NCBI GenBank assembly: GCA_030390025.1
Contig: CM059432.1
Span: 40,984,001-41,048,000, forward strand
Reading direction: 5' to 3'
DNA: 64,000 bases
DNA from: Squalus acanthias
Taxonomy: Eukaryota
The position numbers were made by a program, and so were the translations under genes. Within the stretch, counting starts at the first letter, position 1; each line of letters starts with the position of its first letter. The notes beneath the pieces are model-generated. The model did no database searches, was not told where the DNA came from, and saw only the letters and a program-made list of their open reading frames with translations. Positions 28,774 to 45,699 of the stretch are shown here, one piece after another.

Positions 28774-29682
28774 CCCACCACCAAACACATCTTCCCCTCA
28801 CCTCCCCTTTCAGCATTCCGCAGGGACCGCTCCCTCCGCGACACCCTAGTCCACTCCTCTACCACCCCCAGCACCCCTTCCCCTTCGCCCGGCACCTTCC
28901 CGTGCGCAGGAGATGCAACACATGCCCTTACACCTCCCCTCTTCCCACTGTCCAGGGCCCCAAACACCCCTTCCAGGTGAAACAGCGATTTACTTGTACT
29001 TCCTGCAATTTAGTATACTGTATTCGCTGCTCACGATGTGGTCTCCTCTACATTGGGGAGACCAAACGCAGATTGGGTGACCGCTTTGCGGAACACCTCC
29101 GTTCAGTCCGTAAGGGGGACCCCGAGCTCCCGGTGGCCTGTCACTTTAATTCACCGCTTCACTCCCACTCTGACCTCACCGTCCTCGGCCTATTACACTG
29201 TTCCACGGAAGCGCAGCGTAAGCTCGAGGAACAGCACCTCATCTTTCGTTTAGGCACGCTACAGCCCTCTGGACTCAATATCGAGTTCAACAATTTTAGA
29301 TCATAACCTCAGCTCCAATCACATTTATATTTTATTTTTTCCACCCTTTTATTTGCCCCCCCCCCACCTTTTTTTCCCTCCTAGAAGCTGGCAGCTGTCC
29401 TTCATTCTGCCAGTGGATTTCACACTTTTTTCAGCCTTAATCTGTCACATTAACACCACCTCTAGCCTTGCATATCTCTTAATGTCTCTTAATGTCTCTT
29501 CATCTCCCCTTTGTTCTTTTATCCCCTCCCCCTTTTCCCAGCTTTACTCTGGCCTTAAATCTATTTGATTTCCGGCTCTTCACAGTTCTGACGAAAGGTC
29601 ATCGACCTGAAACGTTAACTCTCTTTCTCTCTCCACGGATGCTGCCTGGCCTGCTGAGTTTTTCCAGCGTTTTCTGTTGTTA
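28774..29682 (+). mobile_element. Penelope-like retroelement, 5'-truncated (GIY-YIG endonuclease and terminal region)
   Basis: ORF 28902..29306 (NLVYCIRC..C...YIGETKRRLGDRFAEH...GLN); 13-bp direct repeat CTACAGATTGCTT at 28761-28773 and 29683-29695. Confidence 0.93.
29584..29620 (+). ncRNA. Minimal type-I hammerhead ribozyme motif of a Penelope-like element
   Basis: AGUU-CUGACGA-A-AGGUC(auc)GACCU-GAAA-CG-UU-AACU. Confidence 0.75.
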
Positions 29683-30124
29683 CTACAGATTGCTTGGTGT
29701 GGGAAATACAAATGTCTGACTGGAACAGTAGTAGAGATTGTGCCTGTTGGCTGTGCCTGATGTGGTCACTAGGTGATTAAAATGTGAATGCATTCCATTC
29801 CCTAGTGCTAATACCTTGTGCTTTCAGGAGATGAAAAATATATAAAACTTGTTTTTAACATTATAATTTGATATAAAATTATGATTTATCCAGAGGGGGA
29901 CAGTTCTGATGGATGAGGTTGTTATGGAAATCAGTCTTTTACAGAAGTATATATTAATTATCTTAACCTCAACTTTGAATATAGTTATCTAATGAAAAAT
30001 ATAACTAAAGTATACTTTTTCTGTAAAATTCAGGATAAATTTTATTTATACTTGTGATGATATGTGTAACATATGTAGACTCATTTTTAAATTTTCTATG
30101 ATCTATTTCTGAACTTTATTTTAG

Positions 30125-30450
30125 TGGAAAATCTGAATATATAGAGCCTGCTAAACGAGCCCATATAGTGCCGCCTCCCCGAGGTCGAGGCAGAGGGGGA
30201 TTTGGGTCAAATTGTAGACCTCATGATATATTTCGGCAACGGAAGCAAAATACAAGCAGACCACCCTCAATGCATGTGGACGATTTTGTAGCAGCAGAAT
30301 GCAAAGACGTTCCCTCCTCTGGCCCACCCCCAGCAAAAAGGACAAATAAAGGACCTCAGAAAGCCCCTCGTGGTGGATTTTCTGGAAATAGAGGAGCACG
30401 AGGTGTCTTTCACAGTCAAAACCGTTTCTTTTCTCCACCTGCTCCCAAAG
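30125..30450 (+). CDS. VIRMA: VIRMA coding exon
   Basis: ag|TGGA...AAAG|gtttgt, 326 nt (phase 2-1); GKSEYIEPAKRAHIVPPPRGRGRGG...HDIFRQRKQNTSRPPSMHVDDFVAAE. Confidence 0.98.
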
Positions 30451-30554
30451 GTTTGTTAATATTTACCATAGATAATTCCCATGTCATTTAGTGTGATACT
30501 GAACAAATTGAAATAATTTGGTTATTTGCATTTTATTTATTAAATTCATTTACT

Positions 30555-32020
30555 GCTTCAGCAAAAGCCATCTTCAATAGCTCAAGAGTCAGGGATAATT
30601 CCCTTAGATTGTAAGGTAGCTCATGTAGTTCCAAGGGGACAAATCAGAGCCAGGGAACTACAGGCCCATCAGCCTGACATCCATCATTGGGAAGATGCTT
30701 GAAGGGATCCTAAGAGATGACCTTTATGATCACTGGGAAAGAGAAGGGGCCATTAGACACACTCAACACGGCTTCCAGAAAAGAAGGTTGAGTCTTACAA
30801 ACTTGATTTGAGTTTTTTTGAAGAAGTTACTCGGTTCGTGAATGAGGGTAATCAGGTTGACATTATCTACCTGGACTTACAGAAAACCTTTGATAAGCTA
30901 CCTCACACTAGGTTACTTCACGGGATAGAACCTTGTGGTATCTGTGGGAATTTGATATGCTGGATTAGGAATTGGCTCCAATTCCACAGCCAAAATGTTC
31001 AAGTCAACGGTTGTGGATCAGCCTGGAGGCAGGTTAGTAGTGGTATCCCCCAGGGAGCGGTGTTAGGCCCGCTACTTTGCACTGTTTTATATTAATGACT
31101 TGGACAGTGGTGTTAGGGATATGATCAGTATGTTTACAAATGATAAAATTTGTTCAAGGGTTAAGACAGTAGAAGAGTATAATCTAATGCAGAGATTTAG
31201 ATGCACTAGGGGAATGGGCCAAACAATGGCAAATTACATTTAAACTCGATAAATGTAGTGTCATGCATGTAGGTAGGACCAACACAGAATACATTTACAG
31301 AATGATACTGAAGGAGTTGCAAGAGAAAAGCATCTGGGTTCACGACCAATGCAGAGAAGCTGTAGCCAAAACAAAATAGGGTATTGGGTTGTATTAATAC
31401 AATCCTTCAGTACAAATCGAAGGACACCATTCTGTCATTATACAGGTCATTGGTTAGACCGCATCGGGAGTACTGTGTCCAGTTCTGGACCCCACACTTG
31501 GTGGGTGATATAGTAGCCTTGGAAAAGGTTCAGAAGAGGGTTACGAGAATGATTTCTAACTTAAAGAACCGTAGTTACTCAGAGGCTTAAAAAGCTGGGT
31601 CTGTTACTTTAGAGCAGCATAGACTTATAGCCGACTTAATATAGGTATATAAAATAATGAAAGGGTCTGATTGTGTGCCTATTTATAGATTATTTCAGTT
31701 TGACAGATTAGGGAGGACCAGGGACATGCATTTAAACTACACAAAAGTAGGAATAGGCTAGATGTTAGGTGCTTCTTCTTTCTGAGTAGTGAGCCTCTGG
31801 AATGCATTGCCGGCTTGTGCGGTGGGTACCGATTCTCTGAATGCGTTCGAGAGAGCTGGACCAGTTCTTGGCTGGGGCAAAATCACATGATATAGAAGGT
31901 AAGTGGATTAACAGTTAACATACGCATGGTCAATGTGATCTCCTGGACTGGTTTTGATTGCCCAAGAGAGTCAGAGAGGAATTTACCAGTTTGGTTTTCC
32001 TCATTGGCCCTGGTTTAGCA
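30555..32020 (+). mobile_element. Old CR1 LINE fragment
   Basis: Degenerate RT ORFs 30808..31095 and 31384..31590. Confidence 0.85.
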
Positions 32021-32169
32021 CACACTTGTCATAGTCCCATCCCGTTCTTGAATAATTTAGTTCTTTCAGTGCCTACAGATGTGCTCTGAAAAGGTTTCTA
32101 GCATACAGATAATTTTTCCAAAATGCAAAACTCATGGTAATTTTGTTCCTACTCTGAACCAATGTAAAC

Positions 32170-33612
32170 AGTTCCCTCCCTTCAGATACTGCTCCCCTCT
32201 AATGTTCCCTTTAAGCTGCGCGGATGTGCAGCCAGTGGGCCAGCTTTTAAATTGAAAAAACCGCGCATGCGCGGACTTTTGAATGGGCCGTGCGGCCCCA
32301 AAAAAATTACAGGGAACATTGCTCCCCTCCCTTTCAAATCTGCCGTCATCACCCTCTTCCTCAGAAAAAACACTCTTGACTCCTCCGTCCTTGCAAACAA
32401 CTATCCAATCTTGCTCTCCTCTCCAAAGCCCTTGAACGTGTTGTTGCTTCCCAAATATGTGTCAATCTTTCCCGAATCTCCATGTTTGAAGCTCTCCAAT
32501 TAGGTTTCCGCTCCTGCCATAGCACTGAAATGGCACTAATCAAAGTCACAAATGACATCCTCTTTGACTGTGACTATGGTGTACTATCCCACCTAATTCT
32601 TCTCAACCTCTCTACAAGCTGTGACACAGTTGACCACGCCATCCTCTTCCAACAACTCTCTTCCATTGTCCAGCTGAGTGGGACTTCCCTCACCTGGTTT
32701 CACTCTTAACTATCCAATTATAGCCAAAGAATTTCCTGCATTGGGTTCTCTTTGCAGCCCTGCACTTTTACCTCTGGAGTCCTCCAAGAATTTATCCTTG
32801 GCCCCCTCCTATTTCTCATCTACATGCTGCCTCTCGGCGACGTCATCCGAAGTCATGATGCCAGGTTCCATATGTATGCTGACGACACCCTGCTCTTCGT
32901 CACCACCATCTCTCTACCCCTCCACTGCCTCTGTGTTGTCAGACTGCTTGTCTGACATCTAGTCTTTGATGAGCCACATTTTCCTCCAATTAAACATTGG
33001 GAAGATTGAAGCATTGCTTGCAGCCCCGCCACAAACTCCGTTCCCTCGCCAACGATTCCATCCCCCCTGCCTGTCCACTGCCTGAGACTAAAACAGACTG
33101 TTTGCATCCTTGGCATTCTATTTGACTCTGAGCTGAGCTGATCCCATATCCTTTCCATCACAAAGACTGCCTACTTCCACCTCCGTAACATCACCCGTCT
33201 CTGCCCCTACCTCAATTTATCTGCTGCTGAAACCCTCATCCATGCTTTTGTTACTTCCAGACTCGACTATTCCAATGTTCTCCTGGCCAGTCTACCATCC
33301 TCCACCCTTCATAAACTTCAGCTCATCCAAAGCTCTGCTGCTCGTATCCTAACCCGCACCAAGTCCCGCTCACCCATCACCCCGTGCTTGCTGACCTACA
33401 TTGGCTCCCGGTCCACCAACGCCTCGATTTTACAGTTCTCACCCTCGTGTTCAAATCCTTCCATGGCCGCACCCCTCCCTATCTCTGTAACCTCCTCCAG
33501 CCCTACAACTATCCGTGAACTCTGCATTCCTTCAAATCTGGCCTCTTGTACATCTTCCACTCCCTCTGCCCCACCATTGGCGGCTGTGCCTTCAGCTGTA
33601 TAGGTCCTGAAT
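32170..33612 (+). mobile_element. L2 LINE fragment
   Basis: Collinear with 1-1270; ORFs 32482..32709 and 32752..32955 (YADD). Confidence 0.88.
32200..32321. mobile_element. 122-bp hAT-type MITE inserted in L2
   Basis: TIRs (t)AATGTTCCCTtTAA / TTAcAGGGAACATTG; 8-bp TSD CTCCCCTC at 32192-32199 and 32322-32329. Confidence 0.85.
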
Positions 33613-34112
33613 GCTTTTTGGTTTGTTTGTACGTGCACAATGTTCTGATGTAAATAGGAAAGTGAGAGTATTCATTTTCATCACAGTGGCACTGTAATGC
33701 TGTTGTGATGAAACTTGAATCCTCTCCCTTTCCTTCAGATGATGTACCTTTTTCATGGAGCTTGTACATATACATATCCAAATTCTCTTGTTCTGTCACA
33801 TTTAAAAAAAAACAAATACTATTAAGGGAAGATGAAATTCAACAGTATTTTATAAAATTTGTGTCATTTTTATTTATACCAACAATCCAAAGCAGTATAG
33901 AGTGGCAATTATAAACATATGCTGAATAAATACTTATTGTGACTTACTCCTGAGCTGTGCCTGTGTTTTTGCTCTGGGAATTGTAATATCTTGTTTCAAC
34001 GAGAATGTGAAATAGTGCACAATGTAAGGGAGGAGTGAATTAGAAGTAAGACATAGCAACCAGGTGTGGTTGGTGGTACTTTTTATTAATCTTTTTCTTT
34101 TTCTCTTTGTAG

Positions 34113-34172
34113 AAGATCTACCTTTTATTCCAGGTCATGCAGTTGGACTCCTGCATCCTAGCACTAGAAATC
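34113..34172 (+). CDS. VIRMA: Candidate alternative in-frame VIRMA cassette exon (60 nt; 57- and 39-nt variants possible)
   Basis: Long pyrimidine tract with TAG acceptor, GTAAGT donor, symmetric phase 1-1, open in the VIRMA frame. Confidence 0.6.
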
Positions 34173-34329
34173 GTAAGTAATTTGTTGTCTCTGTGTCTGT
34201 GTATATATATATTAATTCACATAGACAGTAGAAAGAATTTATAATGCATAATCTGTTATGATCATTGTACACTTGATCACAGTTGAATTTATCTGAAATA
34301 ATATTTGGGCAGTAAGTATCTCTCCTTGT

Positions 34330-34670
34330 AATGGGTTTTTGGTTGTGATTGCTCATACACCATATTCCATCCATGATGGTTATTGGCACAAAGGGGCTTG
34401 AATCCATCCCAGATTAATGGGATTAAATTTGGCTCTAAACTGGCAATCTTAATCAGAGAGGCTCCAAGGATGACTGGTGTGGGAAATGAAAATTACAGTG
34501 GTGTAGTTGGGTGTACTTTTCTAAGATTGAGGCAGAGTAGAGGGAACTTAACTCTGCAGCTGGCTGTGTTAGACCTGGCCCAAGGGTGCTGAGGTGGTAG
34601 ATACTGACACCAGATGCCTGAAATATTAGTGTTCCAAGCACCGGCATTAAATTAAGCACAAAAATTCATC
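34330..34670 (+). repeat. Ancient SINE-like repeat, possibly LF-SINE related
   Basis: tggcaatcttaatcagagaggctccaagga...agcacaaaaattc resembles LF-SINE motifs as I recall them; a related 3' part lies at about 2900-3070. Confidence 0.4.
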
Positions 34671-36129
34671 AAAACAAAATCATTCATGGGCATTAGCTGA
34701 CTACACATTACAGCTCCAGTGTAAACATCTTTCCTCTGGTCTAATTGTTCAAGTTACACAACCTGGATAGAACAGTAGAACACTGCAAGTTGACCACTTT
34801 GCTAAATTGACATTTTTTTATAAATTCCATTTTAAAATCAATATGCAAATCATCTTACTAACTCAACAGCTGGTTATTCAGGAAGTTGATGACTTTAGTC
34901 CTAAGCTGCATTTTTAACTGCTCTAAGTTAAAAGGTAGATAGGTATTTTAAATTGTACCTCAGTAGAAATCAGCTGTTATGGATTCTGGATCTGAAACAC
35001 TTACATTGAAGAGTATTATTGTATTTAAGTCTAAACCTGGTTAACTGGAGGAGTAAATAAGGTCTCATTCATATGGAATTGCCCTCAATTTTTACTTCTT
35101 ACATTGAGAAGCCATGCTACAGATGATCCTCCTGGCATGATCCAAATGTACATGTGGAGAATAAGAAATGTGTTCATAAATTGAAAAGATTTCTACTGAT
35201 GATCAATTTTAAATTTATTTTTTAATTTCCAAGTATTCACCAGGCTGGGTGGGAATTTCATGAGTAAAGTTATTCAGCGTAATTAATTTGCTCCATTGTT
35301 TACTTCAGTGTTCAGGACCCGAATGAACTGTATTCATCCTCCTCTCAAAATCTTTCTGTCTAGGGAGAACCGAGTTAGTTCCCTTAGCTTGTTGCACATT
35401 GAGTTAAGATTTAATACAGTAGTTAACCTTCTGAACAGTGCACAATACTCCCAAATGTGGTCTTTCTGTTAGTCATCTCAATTTTGCAAAATAATACTAT
35501 AATACATCCCGTGTAATATTTGCAAACACTTTTCTTTCAAATAATTTTAAGCTTACTTGGCCTGAAGATTTTTTGAGATCACTGCTCTGTCCTTTCTTGA
35601 AAATGAAATAGTATTTGCTTTTACATGTTCTCTGAACTATCAGTATTTCTTGGCATGCTTCCACAATGTTTCCTCACCCAGTGCTTTTCAAAATTCTGGA
35701 TGAATGCAGTCTGGCCATTAAAAAAAAGTTCTCCATTTTCTTCCCCTTTTTGTCTTGTAACATGATTCATTTGTGTCAGCAGCCCTCCACTACCTCGCCC
35801 AAGTGGGCATTCTTCCTATTTGAACTCTGGGAACATTAGCAGTCTATTATACCATGGGTATGTCACAGACAAACCCAGTCTGGTCCTTAAATAATGCTCA
35901 CACAGGCACTTTCCTGTAAAGTTCACAAGACACCAATCAGGAGCAAGATTCTTAGCTGATTTTTCATCTCGCCGGTGCATGGCTGCTGAGACCATTCATA
36001 GCCTCTACCACCACCCTGGCTGAGATCAGCTAATTCTGTATGGACAAGGAATCGAACTTGGAACTTTTTGACTTCGTACCTAACCATTGGTGCATTTATC
36101 TATTAAGCCATTAGAAAGGACATTAAAGC

Positions 36130-36440
36130 CATAGTGTATTTCACTAGAATTCTACCAGGGATGAGAAACTATATGAGGAGAGACTTGAGATACTGGGATT
36201 ATTTCCACTGGAGCAGAGAAGACTAATATATTTGATCAGGCTTTTTTTAAATTATGAAGTGTTCTGATAGAGTGACTAGGGAAAGACTATGTCCTCTAGT
36301 TGTGAAGTCAGTGACAAGGGGTCACCAATTTAAAATTGTCACCGAGAGGGGTTAGGAGATTTTTTTTTTTTAACAGAGGATTGGTCAAGCATAGAATACT
36401 TTGCCACAGGGAGTGCTTGAGACAGAGTCTAGATGCAGGG
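36130..36440 (+). mobile_element. Old CR1 3' fragment
   Basis: ttcactagaattctaccagggatgag...ggagcagagaagact...acaaggggtcac. Confidence 0.7.
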
Positions 36441-39273
36441 ATTCTTCTTGCAACACCTGCGACATAAAGAGACTCCAGCTTCAAGTGGTAGCATTGGCTT
36501 TGAATTGTTTCAAAGGCAATGTATATAGTGTTGCTACGGAGATAGGAACTGACAGCACAATCGTGTCAACAAGCAGGGCAGGCAAAATGTCATACAAATA
36601 CAGCACTGGTTCAAGGTGCATGAGGAAAAGGCAGTGCTCCGAGAGTGGTGAATGAATTCCATCTGCATACGAAATTCATATAGGTTCCATATATATCTGC
36701 GGAGTTCACCATGGTCAACAGTTTGGATAAACTTGTCATTCAGCAGAAATTGTCTCATTGAATAAATCCACTAACTTACAGCAGAGTTATCTCCTAGTAT
36801 GGTATTCATTCTAGATTCTAAAAGTTGTGTTAGAGGCTAGTTGCATGTGTAAGCTTCAATTTCCTGTAATTGGCTACAAATTGATGTTTACATCAATTGA
36901 TGAGTACAGCTTGAGTTATGCTCGTCCCTGCCAGAGACCAGCCCTCTCTTAATATATACTATTTGGAGAATATTATGTGGACAATGGCTAATGAAGATAA
37001 TGTTCTAATCTTTAGTAATGAGGAATATTGTATCTAAAGTGAATCATTTCTTTTGGTATCACTCAATTTACTTCTGTATGTGATTGGTTTACCTTCCCTC
37101 CCATATCCTTCAAATTACTTAAAGGCTGATTTTGTCCAGTAACATTTACCTTTATGTTTAGCCATTAAAACCAAGTTGTGAAGTTATATTTCTCATAATA
37201 TGCATTTTGATACTGTATTTTTTCCTAATACAATTTCCCATTCACCATCCTCGCCTGACTATAAGAGAATGATCGAGAGTATAATTCAAATGTTCAGCGT
37301 TTACTTGTACCATAGAATTATCTACACCCAAATGTCCCATCTCTAGTTTTTCAACTAGCTTTCACTTGCTTCTGAACACTCCATCCTACACCAGCATCCC
37401 TGCTCCCTTACTGCACGAATTATTAACCACCTTGAACTGGCTCAATTAATTAATTTCTTGAAAGCTGGTTTCTTCCACTTCGTTTCAGAATTGCTGACAC
37501 TTGTGATTATTACCCATTCTTTACCTAGTAGCTTGTTCTCTAAAACTGTTTCCTTTCCCACTCCAAAAATAGCCCAACAATGGCTTTACATCAGCTGGAG
37601 CACCTCCATCCCTAAAAATGAGAGAGAACTTAATATTAACAGTGTTGCCAACTGAGCCAAGCAAATGCACTTAAAATATTAAATACAATATAAAATATTA
37701 AGTACCTGGAGCTCTGCTAATGGCCTTGTGAGTGAAGCCATTATTATAAAGACCACAAAATCCTGGATTTGATTCCTGAGTATGTGCTGATTGAGGTAAT
37801 TATAGTGGGCACTAGAAATGACTCGAATGCCTCTGGGCTAAAGAGGGGGGAAAAAATCAGCCATGCTTTTTGCTCCTCATTGCTTTCCAGTGATCTCTGC
37901 TGGATCATAAATTGTGTAGCCACCGGCTGAGAACAAGACCAGGCTTGGCTATAATGTTTCTTGCAGTCGAACAGGCTTTTGACCCTCGCATTCTAGGCTC
38001 ATACTAGAAGGTGGCCACTTAGAAGAGTTAATGGTGGGTTGCTAGTGCCCATAGAATCACAACCCCAACAACTTGGTGCCTTCATAAGAGGGAGGGAGAA
38101 AATTGGAAACAAACTGTAAACGTAGTACACTTAAATATTCTTGCTGTTGTTTAGGCAAGTGGATGTATTAAATAATATTATTGCAAAGTTGTCGAGCTAT
38201 AAGTCTACACAGTACCTTTTATTTGCTGTGTGTTTTTTAATGACCGTTTCATTTGTTATTCAAGTCGTATCGTTGGTCAGGGACTGGCACATTAACATTT
38301 CTAATTCTAATTTTCCGAGTTTAAATTTCACCTTTTCATAAAATAATTAATGTAGATGTACATTCAAGATGTTGAAAGGATTAACACAATATTATAAGTG
38401 AGTGACTATAATCTCATTTTGACAAAATGCAAAAACTATATTGCCTATGCATACATGAAAATATAACATTCAATGTCACTTCCAGTTATTCTACTGACAA
38501 AATGATATACATACTAACATATGAACACTCATTGTGTCCCATAAATAAACTAATTCCCAGTCTCCAGTCAGCTACAGATACATTTTAAATCTCATGCACT
38601 TGGCTGCAAAATGTAAGAATCAAAATTGGCCACCTTGCTGCAAGAATAAGTTTCACTGCAGCTAAAATGTTTCATCTGCAGATTATTTTGTGAATTTAAT
38701 TTTAACAGTATCACAATTGTGCTTTCTGATGAATAAACAACTTTTTTAAAGTCCCTTTCATTTCTACAGAATTTCATTTGTGCGGTGGTATTTCAAGCCC
38801 TTTTTATGCAGCAAACAGTCTGGATGAATGGGGTACTACAATACTACATTTCATATTTATATCTGTTTGCACAGTATTTAACTGTTAACAAAAGTCAAGG
38901 ATATGCAACAGAAAAGATGGCATCCTCCTGTTGGGAAGGATGCCCACTGCAGCTCTACTTACCCAGGATAGTAGTGGGAAGCATGCTATGGTTTGGCTTG
39001 TAAATCATTCTCCCACTCCTCTGTGCATAGCTGTTTGTCTTCTTGTGGCTTTTTGACCTTCTAAACATGTGCCATTTCCCCACTCCTTGGGAAGCTCTGC
39101 TATGTCTGTGTTTAATGATTGCATGGTGAAGGTATATTCATTACAAAATATTTAAGTACATTAGAGATTGAGGCAACTCTTTTCAGCTGTAATTTGTGTC
39201 CGTTTTTCTAATGCATTGTGTGTTTAATAGTTATTTCTAGAGTGATTTTTGAAGAAAGTTATTTTTACTGTAG

Positions 39274-39408
39274 GAAATTACAGCCGTCGTGAAGGAGGAC
39301 GTGGCTCAAGCTGGAGTGCCCAGAATAGCCCCCGCGGTACATACAGTGAAAATCGAGGTGGTCAAAGCAATTTTAACAAAGGTCCGCCATCAAGACAGCC
39401 TTCAGCAG
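39274..39408 (+). CDS. VIRMA: VIRMA penultimate coding exon
   Basis: ag|GAAAT...GCAG|gtaagg, 135 nt (phase 1-1); NYSRREGGRGSSWSAQNSPRG...RGGQSNFN. Confidence 0.97.
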
Positions 39409-39509
39409 GTAAGGCTGCTGTAGTGAAAATCTAATTGCAGTTCTGCACACACAAGTCCCTACTGCTTACGTTAAAATATTTATATATTTTTAATATGGAT
39501 AAATTACGG

Positions 39510-40212
39510 AAGAAGATTCATGTCCTTGTACATGAATCACAGAAAGTTAACATGCAGGTACAGCAAGCAATTAGGAAAGCAAATGGTATGTTAGCTTTTG
39601 TTACAAAGGGATTGGAGTATAAGAGTAAAGAAGTCTTACTACAATTATACAGGGCACTGGTGAGGCCACACCTGGAGTACTGTGTACAGTTCTGGTCTCC
39701 CTACCTAAGGAAAGACATACTTGCCTTAGAGGGAGTGCAGCAAAGGTTCACTAGACTGGTTCCTCGGATGAGGAGAGATTGAGTAGACTAGGCCTATATT
39801 CCTTAGAGTTTAGAAGAATGAGAGGTGATCTAATTGAAACACATAAAATTCTTAAGGGGCTTGACAGGGTTAATGCTGGGAAAATGTTTCCCCTGGCTGG
39901 GGAATCTAGAACACTGGGTCACAGTCACAGAATAAGGGGTAGGCCATTTAGGACTGAGATGAGAAATTTCTTCACTCAAAGGGTTGTGAATCTTTGGAAT
40001 TCTCTACCCCAGAGAGCTGTGGATGCTCAGTTGTTGAGTATATTCAAGACAGAGGTCGATTACATTTTTGGGAACTAAGGGAATTAAGCGATATGGGGAT
40101 AGTGGAGGAAGGTGGAGTTGAGGTAGAAGATCAGCCATGACCTTGTTGAATGGTGGAGCAGGCTTGAAGGGCCAAATGGCCTACTCCTGCTCCTATTTCT
40201 TATGTTCTTATT
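39510..40212 (+). mobile_element. CR1 3' fragment
   Basis: ORFs 39435..39782 and 39779..40078; tail ctcctatttcttatgttctta. Confidence 0.9.
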
Positions 40213-41527
40213 ATGTAAGAATCCAAATGGCCAGAGATAGATGGGGAAGGCACACAAACCAAAGATTTCAAGTTGGGCAGCTTTTGCTCAGCAGAGGTTT
40301 GGTGCCCTTTGTTTTACAGCAAATACAATCAGCAAATACTGACATTTCTTATTGAAATGTCTTGCGCATAGTAAGCAAAGGAGACAGTGATTTGTTTGGA
40401 AGAGTGGCAACAATTACCAAATGTGTGATGACACACCACTAAAATATTGAGTGGAGAGCATCAAGTAATAAAATATTTTAACATGATGTAAAAGCACAGA
40501 AGAACAATTTACTGGCCTATTCTGCATTTGTAAATATAAGTGTTTAATAATTTACTTGTAAATAAATGTCTGTGTGGTTCTACTTAGCGATCAAAGATTA
40601 CCAGTTGTATCTGAACTAGTATGGATTTCACAGAAAAGCACTGCTGGACCTGTATGTGAACTATACCAATGGAAGTAAAAACTGGGAAAACAGCAATAAA
40701 AAAGAACAGTTAGAACCAATGTTGTCTCACTTCACCCCAGGCAATATATATGATCTCTTGGACACTCACATTTTTGTACCTCCAGAAAAAAGTGTTTTTT
40801 TTTATATAAGGATGCACCAATGCAGTGCCTGCAAAATACAATTTTTTAGTAATATAGGATTAAAGCTGCCTGTTCGGTTCTGAAAGTTTCTGTCCCTGCC
40901 ACCCCACCATTGGATAACTAGTTACTAGGCACTAGTTGGTGATACTACACCACAGCATCAGACTTCTTAATTAGAAGTCAGAGTGCAAATCCAACACTTA
41001 TACTTGGTGCCTGTTGGTCTTCATTTAAACTGATCTCCAGTTTTGATAGAATTTTACATTCTCTGTAAGCGGGGAAGTGACCAGAAACTCCATTCTGATA
41101 TTTATAGTGTGATAAAGAGCAATACCCATATCAGTGAAGATATGCTTTGACTAGAATGTTCATATTTCTATCCCAGGTGGATATTTTTTGAGGTTGGCAG
41201 GAGGAGACAACCTGGAGTACATAGTATAAGGCAGTAGTTACAGTAGGGTTAAGGGTGATATGATCCTCACTCAACTTCATTGAAAAATGGGCTCCTTCAG
41301 AAGATTGTTATAATTTATACCGAATTAAATGATGGATTAGTAACCCCCTTGTGTTTAAAAACCATTAACATTTTTGGGGGTTTTTTTACACCTGGGGAAT
41401 GTTACAAATTAGAACCTGTGATTTGCTTTTGTAGCCAAAGTCACTCTACTCCCTACACTATTTAAATAATTATCCCTGCTTTATAATCGAAACTTGACAA
41501 ATATTTTGCTGGTGTTTTGTTTTTCAG

Positions 41528-41664
41528 GATATCGTCAGAGTCCCCGTGATCGCACATCAAGAGGTCGAGGAGCAGGACCATCATGGGGAGGAGGCGGCTC
41601 AAGAGGAAAGTTTAGTGGAGGAAGTAGCGGAAGGGGTAGACACGTGCGATCCTTTACCCGCTAA
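41528..41664 (+). CDS. VIRMA: VIRMA last coding exon
   Basis: ag|GATAT...CGC TAA; YRQSPRDRTSRGRG...SRGKF...GRGRHVRSFTR* matches the VIRMA C-terminus. Confidence 0.98.
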
Positions 41665-41887
41665 ATGGAGATTTTTGCACGTTTTCTTTATCTGTGAACA
41701 AGTAAATGTTTTTTTCCCCTCAAGACGATGAAGTGTGTGAGAGATTCTGTAGTGGAGTTTGTGGCACTGAAGGACCAATATTTGACTCCAGTAATTTCTG
41801 GTAGTGAGATTTAGTTTCAAGAAAAGTGGATATTTTCGTTGAAGAAATTTGGAAGATGTTGTCCTTTTATAGCAGTATTGAAATTTT

Positions 41888-41893
41888 AATAAA
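41888..41893 (+). promoter_or_regulatory. Candidate proximal VIRMA polyadenylation signal
   Basis: AATAAA about 220 nt after the stop, with a GT/T-rich tract downstream. Confidence 0.55.
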
Positions 41894-43081
41894 ACTGATC
41901 ATCAAAAAAGGCAAGTGTTTTTTTAATTTAATTTTCATAATTGATGAGATCATTAACTGTGAATGAAAGAGGTGCCATACAAAATTTCATTAAGAGATCA
42001 TGGCAGTATGCCATCTTCCATTCAATTACATTGTGCCTTAGAGTTATGTACTGATCCTCAGACATTACAGTCCTGCATTCTCAGAATCCATCCATGCTGG
42101 TTTCCTCAATTTTACTGGAGACTAAATGACAGAGCAGTTCAGACTTGTAAAATACATTTACAGCAAAAAAGTGCTTAAGATTATAGATGACTGAACAGAT
42201 CTGGAACCCCATACTAAACTATTCCATCTGAGCACTTTTTAATCCTACAGATCTCAATGAGGGGATATCCTCTGAAACCAAATAGCTTAAAATCAAGTAA
42301 ATGCCATCTTTTTGCAGGTTTTTATCCTAGAAACCTGGGGATACACTGGTAATTTAAGCATTAGACCAGCTGAACATAAAATTACAGATTTTACATTCTT
42401 CATTCGCAATCCTCCAGACTAGCAGTATAAAAATGTTATACTGTAGATAGGTGGTGCTACACCTGGTGTCCTATTCTTGCTTTGTATAAAGCGTCCAAGA
42501 CCTGCTTCATTGTGCCAGTTTAATATTCCCCAGTTAAGGGATTCTTTGTTTCTTATGTCAGAACTCATGTCCCCTACAGAAATAAGTTAGTCATACATTA
42601 GACCATCAATCATTCTGGTAGTTTGTACAGCTAGTCTGGATCTTTGTGTTTCATTTTTAGGTTGATCAGAGTGTTAAGGCATTAACACCAGTTGGCAACA
42701 GCGCAGAAAATACTATGCTGTTATTTTCAGGACAGGCAGACTAAAGAAAGGCTGCAAGGGGGAATTTACCTAGGTATAGCCCCTGAAAATCAGATATGCT
42801 CAGGAAAAATGGACACTAATCCTTTCTCCCTCCCCCATTATGTGCCTGGATAACAATGCAGCAGAATTTCCAGGCTGGATTTTCAGGTGGTTGAACCTGA
42901 CTGCCTGAAGAGGGCAGAGCAATATAAATCACATGCAGATGACTGTCAAACACCTGTGCACTTAGATTTTCTACTCTGGTGCCTGTTATGGTTCAGGGGA
43001 AAACTGCTCCCAGAGCTGCCACTTTAATGCTACTTGTCTTAAGGGACAAGCTAGTATTGCCAAGAAAGGTCTTTACTTTTT

Positions 43082-43087
43082 AATAAA
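43082..43087 (+). promoter_or_regulatory. Candidate distal VIRMA polyadenylation signal
   Basis: AATAAA preceded by a T-rich tract, at the end of a repeat-poor stretch after the stop. Confidence 0.35.
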
Positions 43088-43189
43088 TTGTTTTGCAGCT
43101 TCAGTACTTGTTACAGAATGCTGTTAGTCCTTTACATGTATTGGAAGCTAGAATGGCAATGAAAGGCTACACAGTAGCAGGTGGCATCG

Positions 43190-43440
43190 GGAGTAGCATT
43201 ACTCCCGGTTTCACGTGCTAGTAAGTACAGGAATAGAAGGATAGAACAGATGAATGTGTGGCTGGAGAGATGGTGCAGGAGGGAGGGCTTTAGATTCTGA
43301 GGCATTGGGACCATTTCTGGGGAAGGTGGAACCTGTACAAGCCGGATGGGTTACACCTCAACAGACGGGACCAATATTTTCGCAGGGAGGTTTGCTACTG
43401 CAGTTGGGGAGGGTTTAAACTAGCTTGGAAGGGGGATGGG
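43190..43440 (+). mobile_element. CR1 ORF1 (SGNH esterase) C-terminal fragment
   Basis: WLERWCRREGF..HWDHFWGRWNLYKPDGLHLN...FATAVGEGLN* with frameshifts. Confidence 0.8.
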
Positions 43441-45699
43441 CACCAGCATGTAGGAGTGGAGGGGAGGAATGGGGTGCATGGAAGAGTTGAGTGTATTGGA
43501 TGGTACTGGGGGGAAAGGTAGTGCTGGAGGCGGAAGTACTACCATATTAGATAGGAGCAGACTAAGAATGACTATCAAAAATGGGTTTAGAATGCATGTA
43601 CGTAAACGCACAAAGTGTGGTGGAGCAGCCGACCATCTGCACATCATAGCAACATTTGTATATGTCTCCCCAGCACCCATCAAGCAAGACTAAATTCCTT
43701 TAAGTATCTGAGATGATTATTTGAAGAATGGAGATCCTGGGGACAAGTTTGTTGGCGGGTGGAGGGTCTCCCACTCCCCCTCCACCATTGTAACTTTAGC
43801 GGAAGATCAGGGTAACCCTGAAGAAACAGCATCAGTGGATATTTTTAGCTGTGTATGCTGTTTCTCCAGGGGTTTTGCTGAAACTCCAGCCACCTACCTT
43901 TACCAGTCTAATTGAAATAATTAATACAAGGGTGTTCATTTATCTCCGTCTCCAGTGGGGTTTAAAAAACCTCAATATATTTACACTTCATTCATTTACT
44001 GCCTAATTACAAACCTGTGATTTAAATAATGTATTTGTATCCAACAAGAGTTATATAAGTTGTATCCCTAAAATTGTCAAAGATAGGCTACTCTAACAAA
44101 AAAATCTACCAAGTGACATCAACTCATCTAGTTAAGGCATTTTTGCCCTTAAAAACACAGACTTCAATGCCTAGACTTGTTGCACTCTGTTTTAGTGTCA
44201 GTGGGAGAAAGGTCAATGCATGGATTGGCATAACTGTCTTTATTTTAAACACCAACAAATATATTGTACCACTTTTAGTTTTGATGTGTTGGCTGGTTTC
44301 TTTAACTACTGATTTTTTGCCATAGGAAGAATAAGTACCTCTTAAGGCTATATGGTTAAAGTGCAAACACAATAGTTGGATCTAATCCATTGATATAATC
44401 AGTGATTGTTGCTTGCTTTGTTTCTATCCAGTTGTGGAAGATGTTTAACAGGCAGTAGAAGTTGTTGCGAGGTAACAATGTCCATCCTCTGGATAACATA
44501 AAAACTTTTAATGATGTTCCACAATATCACCCCAAATTTGATATTCTTTTGTTGACTTCCGGCAGCAATACTTGAAGTGAGATCCTCTGAGAAGTTCAGC
44601 AGAGAATGACTTAGAAATGTCAATTTCTGAGGAAGGAATTACAGAGAAGAAACCAGCATTAAAAAATTGTACTTTAAACTTTGTTGCAGGTGTGAAATGT
44701 ATTTTTTTTTAATTGTCTGGGAGAGTACCTATCTGATACAGTATCCCCTGAAGGGTTTAGCATCCCCATTTTATATAATTAATTTAAATCGGATATGGTG
44801 GAAGAATATATATTAGATAGTATAAGATGCATAGTGGAGTTAGGCTTCAGGTTTGACATCTAGTGGTTTTCACAGCATTTTCTTGTCTTCTTGATTACCT
44901 TATCTTTATCATTTATGTCACCTTTCATTAAACCAATACCTTTACTTGGATCTGATGTGTATTCAAGCACTCTCATCTACAGTGCTCAACCCAGATGTCT
45001 GGATCTGTTGATGGTAGAATGTATACTGGTCCAATGTAGCAACATCTTATTTCACACTGTTCCAATTTGTCTCCATGTAACCACATCCTAATTTTAAAGA
45101 CAATAGCAAAACACTGCATGGATGTAGACTAGTGTTGCATCTGCATTGCCAGTTTTCCACTTTGGCAGTAAACCAATAAATAAAAGCAAGGTAGGCAGCA
45201 CTGCAGCTGTCAGAGCTGATGCACAATGTTCAGAAGTGGTTTCTAGTGACACCTCTGGCAGCACAACCATCCCATTTAAATGGAAAGGCCATTTTTACTG
45301 GCCACAGAGGAATTCTTTTCCTCCCTCCCTAAGTTTAATGACATTCTAAATCCCCCATGATGAACAATTGACAAGGTCACATCTACCCCAACTAGTGCTT
45401 AATTACTTTGTGAAAGAGTTATCAAGGCTGGGACCTTCTCTTTGGATTTATATCAACTTCACCTAATTCCTATCTGGTACGGTAACCCCTTAAGGGTTTA
45501 GCATTACCACATCTATCCATACAGAGACAAATGGCTGATTAGAACTTTCATGGGAAAAATAGTGTTACTCACTGTGTACTTACTATGACCTGGAGTTTCT
45601 TTATAAACCAGTGAAATCGCAACTGGACTCTCTGCAGGATCTTCTGTTCATAAGCATTTGGTTTTAAAGACCTTCAGATTACAAACATCTACATTTTTT

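Follow-up and report, generated by a model that had tools for sequence, protein, structure and literature searches.

The 64,000-nt stretch of Squalus acanthias DNA analysed here (the window) carries the last nine coding exons of VIRMA, placed by tblastn with shark and ray proteins at about 7472-41664 on the + strand, and on this homology we identify it as the chondrichthyan VIRMA locus. The exons and splice sites described below lie on the same strand. An upstream coding exon (30125-30450) ends in phase 1, contains the conserved SMHVDDF motif and an RG-rich block, is 99% identical to shark VIRMA in tblastn and is covered by contigs in four of four runs. A downstream coding exon (39274-39408), recognised by tblastn, contigs and RefSeq models alike, is RG-rich and contains NYSRREGG, and the coding part of the last exon (41528-41664; tblastn and RefSeq models) runs up to a TAA stop. 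Between the two flanking exons lies an 8.8-kb phase-1 interval, from the GT at 30451 to the AG at 39273, which contains two short exons, here called A and B. The same interval holds a high-copy repeat (32284-33843) that ends about 270 nt 5′ of exon A and shows a summed contig depth of up to about 36,900 and many loose ends in all four runs, and, in the intron between A and B, a 27-nt inverted repeat (34945-34971 and 35188-35214; 85% complementary, 216 nt apart). Rfam gave no match across 29000-44000, and the single tandem repeat, a 26-nt array, is located outside the region. Two bovine RAD54B isoforms (P0200 and P0201) are grouped inside a VIRMA protein cluster; P0201 has no tblastn match in the window.

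Exon A, EDLPFIPGHAVGLLHPSTRN, occupies positions 34113-34172 (60 nt, phase 1-1). Its acceptor (34093-34112) has pyrimidines at 17 of 18 positions followed by AG, the most pyrimidine-rich tract among the acceptors scored, and its donor is GTAAGT (34173-34178). A first-pass annotation had proposed this exon from exactly this geometry, with the tract and AG reaching 34112 and the donor starting at 34173, and its boundaries, peptide and phase-1 frame were all confirmed. We aligned to positions 30100-39450 the assembled contigs of four runs (X1, X2, X9 and X13) from four studies, one for each of four organism labels; they come from the 14 among 20 listed runs that at a guess are RNA. Over the upstream exon, contigs of X1 and X2 show no difference from the window, whereas 8 letters are different in X9 and 6 in X13. 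The joint from 30450 to 34113 (GT..AG) is found in the four runs at depths of 21.7, 53.3, 40.8 and 46.9, with 62 letters on its short side in three of them. The joint from 34172 to 39274 (GT..AG) is also found in the four runs (depths 48.6, 21.1, 169.1 and 12.8), its short side of just 28-30 letters lying below the 31-letter bar. In X1, X2 and X13, one unbroken contig comprises the entire upstream exon and the entire exon A and stops at 34172. Exon A is a real spliced coding exon of VIRMA, and the earlier proposal that the RG-rich tail contains such an exon, spliced and in frame, holds at both joints in every run. The joint that would skip A, from 30450 to 39274, is absent from the 15 joints listed of 241, and no contig breaks at 30450 in any of the four runs. 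Because contigs lose rare variants, these data show that inclusion of A is dominant, and rare or tissue-restricted skipping may occur.

The gene models of other cartilaginous fishes give the same picture. We gathered 56 RefSeq models from 17 chondrichthyan species (sharks, skates, rays and the chimaera Callorhinchus) through a homologue search with the upstream exon (best 120 of 293) and through cluster look-ups, in which two clusters were represented by 15 of 18 and 15 of 25 members. Three models were set aside: two stop short of the region, and the third, in a different reading, stops directly after the upstream exon. All the remaining 53 models listed, which cross the junction and represent the 17 species, contain exon A, and its open frame is conserved in 17 of 17 species. 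Exon A is therefore annotated and behaves as constitutive, and two attributes given to it in the first-pass annotation, unannotated and a regulated cassette, are not supported: the contigs pass from the upstream exon into A in the four runs, and the RefSeq models of every species listed include it. An example is Heptranchias perlo, whose RefSeq virilizer isoforms XP_067835352.1 (A and B) and XP_067835354.1 (A only) have the same exons as the window. When the window is translated through four exons with A and B included, 193 of 194 residues agree with XP_067835352.1, A being identical and the whole not, and the A peptide of Heptranchias isoform X3 (P0122) is likewise identical to that of the window. 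These chondrichthyan RefSeq isoforms, named 'protein virilizer homolog', are automatic predictions. The RefSeq count leaves out the UniRef-only Callorhinchus models, one UniRef model with A and five non-RefSeq predictions, two of which have A. Four UniRef-only Callorhinchus models (P0009, P0010, P0170 and P0172) have neither A nor B and P0011 has a different insert of 5 residues; we take these for probable homology-projected models. In Callorhinchus milii, two older models (P0173 and P0175) place an extra 19-residue piece before A, and P0168 has the same piece and then a truncated ending; this piece has no credible match in the window.

Three possible acceptors had been noted for exon A, starting at 34113, 34116 and 34134 and giving 60, 57 and 39 nt, and each of them is indeed open and keeps the frame with the flanking exons. 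The first two form a tandem NAGNAG acceptor (TAG-AAG, with 34113-34115 as its optional triplet), in which the start at 34116 yields the 57-nt form with one residue fewer. This form appears in five of the models listed, from the four species of Leucoraja, Amblyraja, Rhinoraja and Callorhinchus, all of which have the 60-nt form too. The acceptor at 34134 is used in none of the 53 models listed, so this part of the proposal is unsupported. In the four runs, the contigs bear out the predicted junctions of the 60-nt form; the 57-nt joint is not among the joints listed.

How likely is it that an exon with these features arises by chance in an intron of this size? We applied a filter that requires a stop-free, frame-keeping segment of 30-200 nt, at least 15 pyrimidines in 18 positions before AG and a GTRAG donor. 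Exon A was the sole match in the 8.8-kb interval, with none in five other introns and none on the reverse strand; order-3 Markov simulations (n = 200) gave a mean of 0.09 matches, and 8% of them had at least one. Because the filter was designed with A in view, this test gives modest support, and it is the junctions and the orthologues that settle the matter. The UGG-rich and UG-rich motifs described around A exist as short TGG and TG clusters that do not rise above the intronic background: the 250 nt upstream contain TGG 5 times, where the background of 18.2 per kb predicts about 4.6, and the 250 nt downstream contain no (TG)3 run. Neural microexons are typically about 3-27 nt long and have a UGC motif near the acceptor. 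Exons A (60 nt) and B (63 nt) are longer, and no TGC lies between tract and AG in either acceptor. Neither exon has a second copy within the window, and comparisons of A with B, and of both with other parts of VIRMA, show no significant similarity. Contig depth at both exons is in the tens or less, compared with thousands in the repeat at 32284-33843; an old repeat origin would be erased.

The interval from 30451 to 39273 had been read as one intron with one optional exon. This overlooked exon B, QFHLCGGISSPFYAANSLDEW, at 38770-38832 (63 nt, phase 1-1), 4.6 kb downstream of A, which has a CAG acceptor and is an alternative (cassette) exon. Its donor, GGG|GTACTA, is weak, with 4 of 9 positions matching the consensus. 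Among the RefSeq models listed, 34 of 53 have A and B, 19 have A only and none has B only. Models with both exons are found in 17 of 17 species and models with A only in 15 of 17, both exceptions belonging to the two clusters represented in part. The B peptide adds 21 residues after A, or 20 in Callorhinchus. The joint from 34172 to 39274, which skips B, is the one found in the four runs. The alternative exon of the VIRMA tail is B, and A is probably not one.

Joints that include B (34172 to 38770 and 38832 to 39274) are not among the 15 listed of 241, so that, for these runs, the evidence that B is included consists of contig ends and depth. Assuming assembly words of 31 letters, contig ends at 34172, 38770, 38799, 38804 and 39302 are the fork points that we infer would be expected if B were spliced at both ends. 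Contig depth in the bin containing B is 0 in X9 and 5.5-25.9 in the other three runs; depth of contigs measures inclusion poorly, and the species differ between runs. One contig of X1 (depth 5.8) starts at the first base of B, 38770, reads through the B donor and ends at 39131, before a donor-like AAG|GTATAT. This read-through suggests that the B donor may be inefficiently used there. The extended form (38770-39131) would run into a TAA in frame at 38886-38888; it might be an isoform prone to decay or, equally, unspliced RNA ending by chance. Downstream of B, an intronic block (38935-39189) is better conserved than the neighbouring intron and is a candidate splicing-control element. In X9 it differs at 5 letters and has 1 gap in about 255 nt (about 98% identity, from a single comparison), compared with 20-60 other letters over 260-575 nt in other intron pieces of the same run. 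The block contains GCATG (38981) and TGCATG (39120), the RBFOX motif; two occurrences in 441 nt, against backgrounds of 1.0 and 0.3 per kb, are suggestive only. No signal of RNA structure was detected in the block (z = -0.48). That these motifs place B under tissue control is a guess, and an unlikely one.

The distribution of A and B, compared here at the protein level, is restricted to cartilaginous fishes. A search with the 41-residue insert retrieved 8 proteins of 11 candidates, all of them chondrichthyan VIRMA. Among 338 non-chondrichthyan proteins with the anchor motif, the best local score against A or B was 34, whereas genuine copies of A score at least 87; the matches that carry a name include no entry recognised as coelacanth or lungfish. 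Exon A is conserved through the 17 chondrichthyan species, and no counterpart was found in the proteins of bony fishes. The flanking exons are joined directly in three of three lamprey isoforms, in hagfish and in bichir, with 163 of the classified non-chondrichthyan vertebrate entries also showing this arrangement. They include human, as the first-pass annotation had stated and as the human protein P0226 confirms. Since lamprey, hagfish, bichir and most tetrapod proteins have no insert, a gain of A and B on the chondrichthyan stem is the most parsimonious history. Within the 17 species, mean pairwise identity is 0.87 for A, 0.92 for B, 0.87 for the downstream exon and 0.96 for the upstream exon. 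Heptranchias and Callorhinchus, whose lineages split over 400 million years ago, share 20 of 21 residues of B and 17 of 20 of A. Of the segments compared, A has the lowest share of invariant columns (11 of 20).

Other vertebrates have inserts of their own at the same position, and all of them keep the frame and show no significant similarity to A or B. Sturgeons and paddlefish have 33 residues (13 proteins; models P0063 and P0181-P0194), and the first five of these resemble the donor-shift peptide of gar and teleosts. Salamanders have 37 residues in five proteins (P0064, P0269, P0272, P0273 and P0074) that are absent from two isoforms (P0270 and P0271), so that this insert depends on the isoform (P0064/P0270 and P0269/P0271) as B does. 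Teleosts and gar have 5 residues; when genomic sequence is translated straight through, the teleost pentapeptide follows the upstream exon without a break, which indicates a donor shift and no separate exon. Tests of a common origin between A or B and the inserts of sturgeons, paddlefish or salamanders gave nothing significant, the best case, paddlefish against A, reaching p of about 0.05 in 14 comparisons with 5000 shuffles. In the bird Turdus rufiventris, model P0033 runs from the same junction into sequence annotated as PF03221; the prediction has probably taken in part of an intron that derives from a transposon.

What could an insert do at this point of the protein? RNA crosslinks to human VIRMA are reported at P140, E1597 and F1706, and truncation to residues 1-1586 cut RNA binding and left almost no methylation activity, according to PMC9652331. 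In the RFF motif, F1706 is the first Phe; the human exon junction comes after K1713, 7 residues on. We checked this numbering on 10 of 10 published residues in the primate protein P0204 and, allowing for an offset of 2 residues, in the human protein P0226. In the window, the equivalent Phe codon is located at 30426-30428, and the last complete residue of the upstream exon comes 7 residues later. Other reports describe that deletion of both disordered ends of VIRMA abolishes methylation stimulation (PMC9715571) and cite VIRMA, which has an RGG-like motif, among the proteins that interact with RNA G-quadruplexes (PMC8605363). The importance of the tail is restated in PMC11877144 and PMC12453181, the latter calling the significance and specificity of RNA binding by the C-terminal tail unknown. 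The peptides of A and B contain no RG dipeptide, have a net charge of -1 and -2, and have a hydrophobic fraction of 0.30 and 0.38, compared with 0.09-0.18 in the flanking exons. An AlphaFold2 prediction of an A-only fragment (P0001) gives pLDDT below 50 over residues 286-380, including A, and shows no fold there, in a model that is weak overall (mean 47.5). An insert at this point might plausibly affect RNA binding.

Putting these data together, the best explanation, to which we assign a probability of about 0.8, is that A and B were gained in the chondrichthyan ancestor and that A is near-constitutive and B optional. The identity of the exons, the splicing of A, the pattern of A versus A+B in gene models and the restricted distribution are established. 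According to this model, both exons would have been acquired inside one ancient phase-1 intron of VIRMA. The strong splice sites of A would bring it into nearly all mRNAs, with a one-residue wobble at the tandem acceptor, and the weak donor of B would allow it to be included or skipped, giving a protein insert of 20 or 41 residues. Just after the RFF motif, the insert would form a disordered spacer, hydrophobic, slightly acidic and lacking RG, that separates two basic blocks rich in RG. Such a spacer would set the second RG block 20 or 41 residues farther from the motif that contacts RNA, and would add hydrophobic residues. In this way it would most likely adjust the affinity of the tail for RNA or its binding to partners, B being the part that can be switched. 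This functional step is tentative when taken by itself, with a chance somewhat short of even.

Could A nevertheless be a regulated cassette, included at a high level in the tissues best represented in public data and left out in others? Its symmetric phase and its length, a multiple of three, mean that skipping would preserve the frame, and the four UniRef-only Callorhinchus models do without it. However, none of the 53 RefSeq models listed skips A, though the same sets record the skipping of B and even a 3-nt wobble, and contigs unbroken at 30450, a strong acceptor with a GTAAGT donor and proposed motifs that are not enriched all argue in the same direction. We consider this alternative improbable. 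Slightly less probable still is that A goes back to an exon already present in the ancestor of jawed vertebrates, which would share its origin with the insert of sturgeons and paddlefish and would have disappeared from most bony vertebrates. A has a weak local likeness to the inserts of sturgeon (p of about 0.10) and paddlefish (p of about 0.05; 5000 shuffles for both), and each of these pieces is followed by Arg at the junction, but the resemblance is not significant after 14 comparisons, the insert search did not recover sturgeon proteins, and the lack of A in bichir, gar, teleosts and tetrapods would require several losses.

A third possibility competes with the functional step only, namely that the inserts are tolerated filler in a disordered tail and that their conservation reflects slow chondrichthyan evolution together with splicing signals at the nucleotide level rather than a function of the peptide. 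The junction accepts unrelated inserts of 5, 33 and 37 residues in teleosts and gar, sturgeons and salamanders, which suggests that it tolerates varied sequence; the low-confidence AlphaFold2 model around A and the position of A as the least invariant segment are in line with this. On the contrary, the retention of nearly all of B and most of A between Heptranchias and Callorhinchus, the strongly biased composition of both peptides with respect to their flanks and the proximity of the junction to the RNA-contact residue reported in PMC9652331 speak against mere filler. Because the inserts of other lineages are so varied, we regard filler as at least as likely as the functional step, with a chance close to even.

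As it stands, the significance of the preferred explanation, a chondrichthyan gain of A and B, is small: a correct exon call that was already in databases, and the correction that the optional exon is B. Exon A appears to be an ordinary lineage-specific exon gain, already annotated and nearly always included, and it is, like B, already known at the level of database annotation. A published account of either exon was not found in the titles and beginnings of abstracts listed; supplementary splicing tables or splicing databases could hold one. A more ambitious idea is that the junction after RFF is a recurrent point for tuning the m6A writer, with independent additions in cartilaginous fishes, sturgeons, salamanders and teleosts, and with a tissue-controlled B that makes the hydrophobic, acidic spacer longer and so alters the strength or the place of RNA binding by the writer; we hold this to be quite unlikely. 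If true, B would provide sharks and rays with an isoform-level control of m6A deposition that has no equivalent in the mammalian models examined. Natural inserts of 0, 20 and 41 residues beside a mapped RNA contact, kept in sharks, rays and a chimaera, are in addition ready variants for probing the tail.

Lineage-specific, frame-preserving alternative exons in disordered regions are a general known class, and so are NAGNAG tandem acceptors. Exons A and B resemble the former in being short, symmetric and located in a disordered tail, and B also in its weak donor. Unlike such exons, A is constitutive-like instead of belonging to a minor form, and no repeat origin is visible. The TAG-AAG of A belongs to the latter class, with both sites used in relatives. 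With respect to VIRMA itself, the abstract of PMC10198946 mentions two known isoforms, a full-length and an N-terminal form, and neither of the two is an insert at the A/B junction. In human VIRMA (KIAA1429), the scaffold of the m6A writer (PMC9652331, PMC9715571, PMC12453181), the junction is orthologous and the protein retains the RFF motif, including F1706, as well as the two RG-rich blocks, but the two exons are joined directly, whereas in the shark A and B stand between them.
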